Shown here piece after piece: positions 59,213 through 61,476 of a stretch of DNA of 61,646 bases. Origin of the DNA: Bdellovibrionales bacterium (GTDB taxonomy: Bacteria > Bdellovibrionota > Bdellovibrionia > Bdellovibrionales > UBA1609); the NCBI GenBank assembly GCA_028283955.1, contig JANQSP010000022.1:1-61646 (forward strand). The letters are read 5' to 3'. Within the stretch, counting starts at the first letter, position 1; each line of letters starts with the position of its first letter. Both the position numbers and the translations under genes were made by a program. The notes beneath the pieces were generated by a model, which had not been told where the DNA came from, did no database searches, and worked only from the letters and a program-made list of their open reading frames with translations.

Positions 59213-59962
59213 ATGTGGGAGGAACTTATGAGTACAGTACACACAGAAGTCTTGACTATGCATTTGGGTGAACATGTGTCTAAATCTTATTTGGCTTATC
59301 CCGCCGGCCAACAAAGTCCGCAGCCGGGTGTGTTGGTCATTCCTGAATTTTGGGGCTTGACAGAACACACTAAAAGTCGGGCTTACAGGCTGGCTGAACT
59401 AGGTTATTGTGCCTTGGCTTTGGACGTATATGGAGAAGGATGGGTAGGTAGCACAGCTGAGGAAGCAGCAGCCGCAATGAATAAATTATTTTCTAATATG
59501 CAGGTCACTTCTGAAAGAATGCTTTCGTATTTACAGGCTTTGAAGGATCTGAAACAGATAGATGAAACAAAAACAGCCTCTATTGGTTATTGTTTGGGGG
59601 GAGCTTTATCCTTGCATTTGGCTCGTATGGGCGCGGATGTGACAGGAGTGGCCAGCTTTCACGGAAGCCTGGATCCACGTACAACCGCTAAACAAGGTGG
59701 TGTTAAAGCGAAGATTTTGGTTTGCCATGGGGATGCGGATTCCATGATTCCGGAAGAAAAAGTTAATAACTTTAAAAAGGAAATGGAAGAGGCCGGAGCG
59801 GATTATAAGTTTATCAGTTATCCGGAGGCTCAGCATGGGTTTACCAATCCGCAGGCAACTGAAAACGGAAAGAAATTCGGTATTCCCACAGCCTATAACG
59901 AAAAGGCGGATAAAGGCTCCTGGGAAGAATTGTTGAAATTTTTTAGTCGTATTTTTAGTTAG
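59213..59962 (+). CDS. Dienelactone hydrolase-family protein
   Basis: IPEFWG, GYCLGG (Cys nucleophile), FHG, HGDAD, HGFT. Probable start is ATG 59228. Confidence 0.92.
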   Translation: MWEELMSTVHTEVLTMHLGEHVSKSYLAYPAGQQSPQPGVLVIPEFWGLTEHTKSRAYRLAELGYCALALDVYGEGWVGSTAEEAAAAMNKLFSNMQVTSERMLSYLQALKDLKQIDETKTASIGYCLGGALSLHLARMGADVTGVASFHGSLDPRTTAKQGGVKAKILVCHGDADSMIPEEKVNNFKKEMEEAGADYKFISYPEAQHGFTNPQATENGKKFGIPTAYNEKADKGSWEELLKFFSRIFS

Positions 59963-60005
59963 AACAGTTTTTTTATTTACTTCCATTCTTTTTCTTATTG
60001 CTTGT

Positions 60006-60133
60006 TCATTCTACGAAGACAAAGTTAGCTCGGCTTTGATCACAGAGCGGCTGATCCCCGCCTTCACGGGGTGACGGCTCTGTGGCAAAACGCATGTCTG
60101 AACTTTTGAGCTAATTTTGTCTTCGTAGAATGA
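60006..60133. mobile_element. 128-bp inverted-repeat element (candidate MITE, or a structured ncRNA)
   Basis: 26-bp terminal inverted repeats with 1 mismatch (TCATTCTACGAAGACAAAGTTAGCTC at 60006-60031; GAGCTAATTTTGTCTTCGTAGAATGA at 60108-60133). Inner stems CACAGAGC/GCTCTGTG and CCCCG/CGGGG. GC-richer than its flanks. Confidence 0.55.
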
Positions 60134-61476
60134 CGATAAGGGATAAAATGTTTAAAGATAAATTTATTATAAGGTTTTTCCTGTTTATTTGCTCCATTTT
60201 AATATTAACCTCATATTTTGTGTCTGCAAATCAGGGTGATAAATGTGAGGGATTTCTGCCTCCTCTGGTTCCTCCACCACCATTACCGGAAGGGATCAAA
60301 ATAGAACCTGATTTAGGACAAGAATTTACTTTTACTGCAAATCTAAAAGGGAAAAATATACCTGTAAGATATTCCAAATATCGAGCAACAATGATTCCCA
60401 GGAAAGGAACAATAATATTCTTGTGTGGAGGGCCGGGAGTTCCTTGTACGGGAGCCAGACCACAAAACATTCCCAAGGAATACGATGTGGTCACTTTGGA
60501 TTATCTGGGTATTGGCAGAAATGCCAGGCATAATAAACCAGCATATATGGCCATTGAATCTCAAGGAGATATTGTAGCTCAAGTAGCTAAACGCTTAAAA
60601 GAGCCAAACTTACTCATTTTCGCTCAATCATTTGGAACAACTGTTGCAACTGTTGCGGGCTCTTTAATTAATACGGCGGCAAACGATACTAAGGAAACTG
60701 TTCTAAAAGGTGTGGTTTTAGAAGGGGTTGTGGGACCGGATTCCGGGCAAAGTTATTCTGAAGGGTACTCATCTACAGCTAAACATGCCTGGTCCTATTT
60801 GTCTCCAAAACAAAAAAAACGCTTCAGAATACAATATGCCAAAGCTGTTAAAGGTTTATCTCCTGAAGAGAAATTTAACATTGATGCGACAATAGTGATG
60901 AATATGCAGTCAGGAACAAAAGCTACTGTGGAATTTTTAAAGCATATAAATTCTGAGCAACTTCGATATGCAGCTCAATCCGATTTTTATACAAATTTTA
61001 TAAATAGGCCAGGTGTCCGGGATATTTTTCAGGCAGCAGGGTGCCAATTACACTTTAAGGATTCTGAGACAGGGATGAAAATTTTTGGTGGCACTGTTGA
61101 TTTAATTACAATGGGATCTGGAGCTGATAAAATCTGTAAATGTAGAACTGTTGCAAATAACTTTAATCCGAATACTCATCAGATTAAGGCTCCCATTGTA
61201 TATATTAATGGTGGTCAAGACCCTGCCACACCACTTGCTGGAGCAAAAGAGCACATGGAAGGACAAAGTCACCCTAATAAAGTTCTCATATCTTCTCCAA
61301 ATGGAGGTCACATTGATTCATCTGGATTATTGAAAAATTGCATGCCTATTTTCTTTGAAGAGCTGAACAAAGGACGTTTCGAGAACTTAGTATCTTCAGC
61401 TACGTCGATGTCTAATGGGAGATGTGAAAGTCAGACTAACCTCCCTGGAAATGGACAGCAAAAAGCTGTGCAATAA
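60130..61476 (+). CDS. Secreted alpha/beta hydrolase (S33 / TAP-like peptidase)
   Basis: Signal peptide; GGPG, nucleophile AQSFG, GGQDPATP, GGH. Likely true start is ATG 60148 with AAGGGA RBS. Confidence 0.8.
   Translation: MTIRDKMFKDKFIIRFFLFICSILILTSYFVSANQGDKCEGFLPPLVPPPPLPEGIKIEPDLGQEFTFTANLKGKNIPVRYSKYRATMIPRKGTIIFLCGGPGVPCTGARPQNIPKEYDVVTLDYLGIGRNARHNKPAYMAIESQGDIVAQVAKRLKEPNLLIFAQSFGTTVATVAGSLINTAANDTKETVLKGVVLEGVVGPDSGQSYSEGYSSTAKHAWSYLSPKQKKRFRIQYAKAVKGLSPEEKFNIDATIVMNMQSGTKATVEFLKHINSEQLRYAAQSDFYTNFINRPGVRDIFQAAGCQLHFKDSETGMKIFGGTVDLITMGSGADKICKCRTVANNFNPNTHQIKAPIVYINGGQDPATPLAGAKEHMEGQSHPNKVLISSPNGGHIDSSGLLKNCMPIFFEELNKGRFENLVSSATSMSNGRCESQTNLPGNGQQKAVQ

Follow-up and report, generated by a model that had tools for sequence, protein, structure and literature searches.

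The window analysed here, a stretch of 61,646 nt from a Bdellovibrionales bacterium, contains a long palindrome directly in front of a gene start, which raises the question of whether such a structure belongs to that gene, as its regulator or as an RNA in its own right, or is one copy of a repeat that moves around the genome. The initial annotation, made from the letters alone, had offered a new MITE family, a domesticated repeat controlling the downstream gene and a short 6S-like rod RNA. The palindrome, a fold-back element of 128 nt (coordinates 60006–60133, plus strand), occupies most of a 185-nt spacer between a gene for a dienelactone hydrolase (DLH) family protein (59213–59962, plus strand; Pfam PF01738, E = 1.9e-48), whose stop codon is located 43 nt upstream of the element, and a gene for an exported alpha/beta-hydrolase (60148–61476, plus strand; PF00561). 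A few kb upstream of the element, the window also contains a repeat with a spacing of 102 nt and a G-TALH-A pattern (56094–56734), which is typical of a gene for an ankyrin-repeat protein.

The fold-back element and its neighbouring genes

On folding, the element forms a near-perfect rod of 128 nt, with an energy of -67.7 kcal/mol for the RNA of the plus strand (z = -9.8; none of 200 shuffles was as good), -65.4 kcal/mol for the RNA of the minus strand and -38.6 for the DNA (z = -9.3). The closing stem is made of two arms of 26 nt that are 96% complementary, with one G-T pair, the left arm (60006–60031) being a near-exact reverse complement of the right arm (60108–60133). A second stem pairs GGCTTTGATCACAGAGC (60032–60048) with GCTCTGTGGCAAA (60077–60089); its 5′ strand can be divided as GGCTTTGA-TCACAGAGC, conserved among the copies compared below, and its 3′ strand as GCTCTGTG-GCAAA. 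A one-sided bulge of 18 nt, ACGCATGTCTGAACTTTT (60090–60107), separates the second stem from the right arm, and CCCCG-CCTTCA-CGGGG forms the hairpin at the apex. All these parts had been described in the initial annotation and were recovered at the same positions, as was the lack of a direct target duplication flanking this copy.

The right arm is situated just before the ribosome binding site of the hydrolase gene and includes an ATG (60130) in frame with its ORF, as had also been pointed out. This codon is not accompanied by a Shine-Dalgarno sequence; the ATG at 60148 is preceded by one (AAGGGA, 60138–60143) and opens a signal-peptide-like N-terminus. Judging from the sequence, the ATG at 60148 is the likely start of the hydrolase, and the one in the arm is probably not a start codon. 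A scan of positions 59800–60300 did not reveal matches to the consensus of sigma-70-like promoters or of intrinsic terminators, so that transcripts of the DLH gene may extend into the hydrolase gene. If both genes were co-transcribed, their mRNA would contain a very stable hairpin, of -68 kcal/mol, ending 4 nt before the Shine-Dalgarno sequence of the hydrolase (60138). In Correia elements, RNase III can cut or protect, and these elements can also create promoters (PMC2649163); by analogy, a cis effect of the window copy on the hydrolase gene is possible. The more specific proposal of a domesticated repeat that controls this gene finds no support, given the lack of promoter and terminator consensus sequences, the degenerate state of the copy and the lack of a hydrolase orthologue in 13 genomes of the genus. 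Scanning metagenomes with the hydrolase did not retrieve any relative, and exact-protein look-ups of the DLH and GlmM proteins returned no record.

A repeat family with a fixed core and variable, paired arms

The genome searched comprises 1.35 Mb in 85 contigs, with 38.7% G+C and an estimated completeness of about 91%. Blast comparison of the 128-nt element against this genome, a check suggested in the initial annotation, retrieved 56 matches in about 53 places, indicating that the element is multi-copy. A covariance model built from 33 copies (R1) identified 46 copies in the 1.35 Mb, which amounts to one copy per about 29 kb and to about 0.4% of the genome. A chance or decayed single palindrome is refuted by this copy number.

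A canonical member of the family is about 115–125 nt long and is organized as CTATGAAGTCAAAAG-CAGGTCAAAACGAGTTCGGCTTTGA-(stem-loop)-GGCAAAACGCATGTCTGAGCTTTTGAGCTGA-CTTTTGACTTCATAG. Sequence variation is not evenly distributed along it: there is hardly any among copies in the right core and in most of the left core, which together constitute a single, asymmetric core in two parts, CG-AGTTCGG ... CGNA-TGTYTGAG, whereas the outer 10–20 bp of the closing stem vary from copy to copy and yet remain complementary, with end pairs such as CTATGAAG/CTTCATAG, TCTCTCAAGG/CCTTGAGAGA, CATTTTTTCAGG/CCTGAAAAAATG, CCATGAGGGAAC/GTTCCCTCATGG and CTCAAATCACAAT/ATTGTGATTTGAG. In the alignment of 33 sequences, 93.5% of cells formed standard pairs, versus 84.2% after shuffling (0 of 500 shuffles as good), and double-sided changes were seen in 109 cells versus 31.5 expected; sliding the partner columns, as a control, reduced pairing to 31–60%. 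Additionally, the plus strand consistently forms a short helix, GAGUUCGG/CUGARCUU, with three G-U pairs, because of which this helix would not form on the complement. In 95 of 98 copies, the plus strand folds better than the minus strand, with an average advantage of 7.4 kcal/mol, although these copies are not independent observations, since much of the asymmetry comes from the shared core. The tips of the copies are often GNRA-like (GAAA), and some copies contain other inserts at this point.

Certain copies are shortened or disturb the annotation of their surroundings. In three short derivatives (C82:11434, C30:1373 and C73:708), everything between two CAAAACG direct repeats is apparently gone (AAAGCAGGTCAAAACGCATGTCTGAGC...), as if deleted internally by slippage or recombination. 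In a biotin gene cluster (C23:10122–10778), an ORF of 219 aa located between two inverted copies of the element ends inside a truncated one, its last residues (...FCGKTHV) being encoded by the repeat and thus representing a repeat-made extension of the ORF. Six contigs begin or end inside a copy, which is expected because the repeat breaks assemblies; this behaviour and the generation of spurious ORF extensions make it advisable that annotators mask the family.

The R1 model also matches the window copy (C47:60005–60135), with 70.5 bits and a significant E value (3.8e-16), while canonical copies score 110–141 bits. This copy retains the closing stem and the inner stem-loop, together with an intact right half of the core (GGCAAAACGCATGTCTGAACTTTTGAG, 60084–60110), every position of which agrees with the right core of the family, GGCAAAACGCATGTYTGARCTTTTGAG. 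From the left core, CAAAAYGAGTTCGGCTTTGA, it retains only GGCTTTGA: the left invariant CGAGTTC appears in the left arm as TTAGCTC, and a unit of 11 nt, AAAAGCAGGTC, is absent. The whole element (60006–60133) is therefore a degenerate member of the family, and positions 60090–60107 protrude as a one-sided bulge because their normal partner in the left arm is gone.

The more parsimonious origin for this arrangement is a single event in which the right arm served as template for the left one, since otherwise a deletion and a further four or five substitutions, independent of each other, would all have had to create complementarity by chance. The event could have been a template switch or a fold-back repair that rebuilt the left arm as the complement of the right arm; the left half of the core would thereby have been lost, and 18 nt of the right core would have remained as an unpaired bulge. 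The rearrangement is also a hint that the palindromic state of the arms is maintained on the level of DNA, even at the expense of the core. Having lost the left half of the core in the rebuilding of the left arm, the window copy is probably immobile.

The apical part of the window copy contains a smaller repeat of a different class. The minus strand of positions 60053–60076 reads CGTCACCCCGTGAAGGCGGGGATC, which probably corresponds to a slightly decayed CGTC-1 (dRS3-class) REP, CGTC-A(T lost)CCCCGT-GAAG-GCGGGGAT, with a CGTC tag, a GAAG loop, a stem formed by A-CCCCGT/GCGGGGAT (one base lost and one G-T) and a CAG tail in place of CCA. The CGTC-1 class is defined by a CGTC or TGTC tag, a stem of 8 bp starting with AT, a loop of 4 nt and a CCA tail (PMC3733652); according to Di Nocera et al. 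(2013), it corresponds to the Neisseria dRS3 repeats, CGTC REPs lack a dedicated transposase, and REPs occur nested in longer palindromes (PMC3733652). The genome contains at least 67 strict copies of the REP CGTC-ATTCCCGC-GAAG-GCGGGAAT-CCA, and 99 copies within three substitutions; these copies agree with the class in the AT-starting stem of 8 bp and the loop of 4 nt, all 67 strict copies have the CGTC or TGTC tag and 60 of them the CCA tail. The apical loop of four elements (the window copy, C12:43070, C30:24674 and C55:7493) contains a REP at an identical point and with a shared orientation, and one further copy of the element contains two nested REPs. The REP/dRS3-like core proposed in the initial annotation thus holds for an insert of 24 nt in the tip, and does not extend to the 128-bp element as a whole.

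Elsewhere in the genome, CGTC-1 REPs (e.g., at C23:10786–10860 and C8:12621–12685) often adjoin hairpin elements; their variants covary (ATTCCGGA...TCCGGAAT, ATCCCCG...CGGGGAT) and they include a tandem array of truncated units. A second palindromic family (TACATACAGGAAAATAG ... CCCGATAGAGGCAAAGCTATTTTCCTGTATGTAAC) is found at C19:1560–1840, C63:1380–1640, C48:4470–4545 and C85:~21010, enclosing a hairpin element in the first of these places and occurring without it in the second. The intergenic regions of this genome are mosaics of at least three repeat families. The assembly also contains two sets of ribosomal-protein genes from the rplW/rplB region (C61:1773–4468 and C8:11711–13799) with a DNA identity of only 78–83%, which could mean that DNA of another, related organism has contaminated the bin; the CheckM-type contamination is 2.5%.

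Distribution, insertion sites and candidate mobility enzymes

An exact 27-mer of the core was found only in genomes titled 'MAG: Bdellovibrionales bacterium'. Within the GTDB genus of this bacterium, 9 of 14 genomes gave Blast matches to the repeat, as did one other genus. At the level of the GTDB family, the covariance model detected the core in 16 of 41 genomes, representing 14 of 35 genera; carriers identified with the model include genomes of 3–4.5 Mb. This distribution, together with the 46 copies retrieved from a single genome, leaves no room for the single-copy sequence that the initial annotation had considered. Inspection of 60-odd copies from 15 further genomes showed that CG-AGTTCGG and CGNA-TGTYTGAG are the sole invariants. 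Across genera, the closing stem is genus-specific or copy-specific and the helix adjacent to the core appears as TTTG/CAAA, TTGG/CCAA, TCGG/CCGA or, with a G-U pair, TTGG/CCGG. In one relative (G003), the elements form regular tandem arrays of five or more units with a period of about 213 nt (C1:736995–738034 and 355484–355797).

Searches of Rfam with the window copy returned no relevant match at E <= 10, and those with nine canonical copies from eight genomes returned only sub-threshold look-alikes of miRNA precursors. These searches, which had been suggested with 6S and SRP RNAs in mind, leave the proposed 6S-like rod RNA without a counterpart, and the copy number also argues against it. Searches of the literature on Bdellovibrio repeats or MITEs yielded nothing relevant. 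Neither Rfam nor the searchable literature contains a description of the family.

All copies in the genome are intergenic. With respect to the flanking genes, 14 lie between tandem genes in the same orientation and 15 in the opposite one, six between divergent genes and five between convergent genes, which shows no bias in orientation and, in raw counts unscaled to the mix of spacers in the genome, no strong skew to any type of spacer. The spacer between glmM and nnr contains a copy in this genome and none in eight relatives with the same gene order, whose spacers have diverged so far that an exact empty site is not definable. A filled and an empty site with orthologous flanks were found in another, distant genus, between genomes G066 and G016, which are 95% identical in orthologous DNA: the site comprises 358 nt in G066, including the element, which is there a longer composite, versus 7 nt in G016, and its flanks align at 89% and 76%. 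The block inserted in G066 starts with ACTGGCC and ends with GGCCAGT, and lies in a possibly duplicated, A/T-rich site (CTTTTAAWA). Among 34 copies of the genome under study, repeats in the flanks were no commoner than in shuffled pairs, a comparison weakened by the imprecise ends of the element, and a search for paralogous empty sites within this genome gave only mosaics with a second repeat family. An orientation linked to the replichores was not obvious by eye in two complete relatives, inspected with the origin unmapped.

Blast comparison of the genome against itself did not reveal any multi-copy IS. An arrangement of left end, ORF and right end, as would be typical of a parent IS, was not found in this genome, nor was a transposase gene with matching ends, which the initial annotation had proposed to look for. 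Genes for Y1_Tnp proteins (IS200/RAYT) are absent from this genome (G000) and from four other carriers of the element (G012, G015, G016 and G047), and are present in many genomes without the element, being abundant in three of these, G014, G044 and G064. Across the family, none of Y1_Tnp, IS110 DEDD and Y2_Tnp (IS91) proteins co-occurs with the element, and no gene recurrently flanks it across genomes among 771 ORFs from the sampled loci. Since the genome is about 91% complete, the gene for a single-copy enzyme could be missing from the assembly. Many of the larger genomes of the family, such as G014, G044, G060, G064 and G063, contain 10–17 weak Y1_Tnp-like ORFs, of 170–260 aa and scoring 25–37 bits; these could represent a RAYT-like or divergent HUH family, and do not co-occur with the element.

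Nature of the family and its relation to known repeats

We consider that the 128-bp fold-back is probably a passenger copy of a lineage-specific, non-coding, hairpin-forming intergenic repeat, similar to REPIN, Correia and ERIC elements, that multiplies as DNA. The working part of the repeat would be its core, with CG-AGUUCGG as the 5′ part and CGNA-UGUYUGAG as the 3′ part, held at the junction between the closing stem and the inner stem-loop. The stems would need pairing alone, such that their sequence could drift while the core is retained, and the complementarity of the arms would be kept both by this structural requirement and by templated copying from arm to arm. We infer that the plus strand folds as a single strand and would then be recognised by a putative trans-acting factor that copies or moves the element. 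More tentatively, the junction that is invariant in at least 14 genera might be the recognition structure of a vertically inherited enzyme, or of an RNA-binding protein, that reads one folded strand.

The family shares features with several known systems, without coinciding with any of them. Like the REPINs associated with RAYTs (Bertels and Rainey, 2011; PMC3116915), the elements are intergenic, non-autonomous and lineage-persistent hairpin-forming sequences of around 100 nt, combine conserved recognition sequences with parts that are conserved only in their pairing, with frequent compensatory changes, and occur in clusters and arrays. However, they are not composed of two inverted REPs, having instead a single asymmetric core at a junction in the middle of the stem and variable outermost arms, and a RAYT/Y1 gene was not found in this genome or in its small-genome relatives. 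The Correia (CREE/nemis) elements of Neisseria (PMC2649163) are likewise inverted-repeat elements of 100–150 bp with a conserved core and dozens to hundreds of intergenic copies, which show insertion polymorphism between close genomes, form a long hairpin that can enter transcripts, and occur alongside dRS3/CGTC-1 REPs, with which they interleave; outward-facing -35-like hexamers in the arms are also common to both, albeit weak here. Conversely, Correia elements have conserved terminal inverted repeats of 26 bp and a TA duplication, while the arms are variable and no duplication was seen in the present family. The ERIC/IRU elements of Enterobacteria (reviewed in PMC3184786) are likewise imperfect palindromes, about 127 bp long, that are conserved in different genera and whose size varies through internal deletions or insertions at fixed points. 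They are unrelated in sequence to the elements described here, whose copy density is far higher (one per about 29 kb). To our knowledge, no transposase has been assigned to ERIC/IRU, which is also the situation of the present element.

One alternative is that the family is primarily a structured RNA, consisting either of small RNA genes or of a cis module (for processing, for stability or as a protein-binding site), in which the core would be an RNA motif and the DNA copies would be spread by a mobile vehicle. Helices that covary around invariant junction nucleotides in 14 genera, frequent GNRA-like (GAAA) tips, G-U pairs restricted to one strand and a more stable plus strand in 95 of 98 copies would all be expected from such an RNA, although the strand asymmetry and the G-U pairs fit a role as single-stranded DNA equally well. 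We nevertheless regard it as unlikely, because the copies are oriented at random with respect to genes, with no strong skew to tandem, divergent or convergent spacers (unscaled to the mix of the genome), lack synteny and do not match any Rfam family. Nor is there a conserved upstream promoter: weak outward promoter-like matches, TTGAC(T/C) in the arms, appear in around one third of the canonical copies, and none in the window copy. Furthermore, the window copy is a near-perfect hairpin despite the loss of half of its core, which points to maintenance at the DNA level.

Among the options of the initial annotation, a new MITE family came closest, in that the element does not code for protein, occurs in 46 intergenic copies and is lacking at orthologous sites in relatives. 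Nevertheless, a MITE in the classical sense, that is, an internally deleted derivative of a DDE-type IS with terminal inverted repeats (TIRs) recognised by a transposase in trans and moved by cut-and-paste, appears improbable to us. The small size and the inverted repeats at the boundaries agree with it, as do the ACTGGCC...GGCCAGT limits of the block in G066 and its possibly duplicated A/T-rich site (CTTTTAAWA), whereas the terminal 10–15 bp vary (CTATGAAG, TCTCTCAAGG, CATTTTTTCAGG, CCATGAGGGAAC and others), both in this genome and in the genus, around an invariant core. Variable ends with an invariant interior are the reverse of a TIR recognised by a transposase. Additionally, target duplications were not above chance, and neither a parent IS with matching ends nor any multi-copy IS was found. 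It is harder still to credit a palindrome without a family, arisen by chance or decayed, or a sequence present once and dedicated to the hydrolase gene, as its regulator or as a 6S-like RNA: the position directly upstream of the gene start and the overlap with an in-frame ATG would suit it, but the genome contains 46 to 53 related copies, there is no Rfam match and no promoter or terminator consensus, and the hydrolase is without an orthologue in the genus.

The locus itself is of little consequence, as it contains a worn passenger copy and no dedicated regulator. The repeat family, which we favour as one that multiplies as DNA, is of more interest because it extends over many genera and is not accompanied by any known single-strand or IS110 transposase. 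It inverts the usual logic of MITEs, with an interior that is conserved and ends that are free to vary as long as they pair, and it offers a clean system to examine by what means orphan palindromic repeats are recognised and copied, and how they stay palindromic. If the invariant junction were indeed the recognition structure of a vertically inherited factor, the family would constitute a RAYT-independent, REPIN-like system of replicator and host across a family-level clade of Bdellovibrio-like bacteria, and might provide a route to how CGTC REPs, ERIC and Correia elements move.
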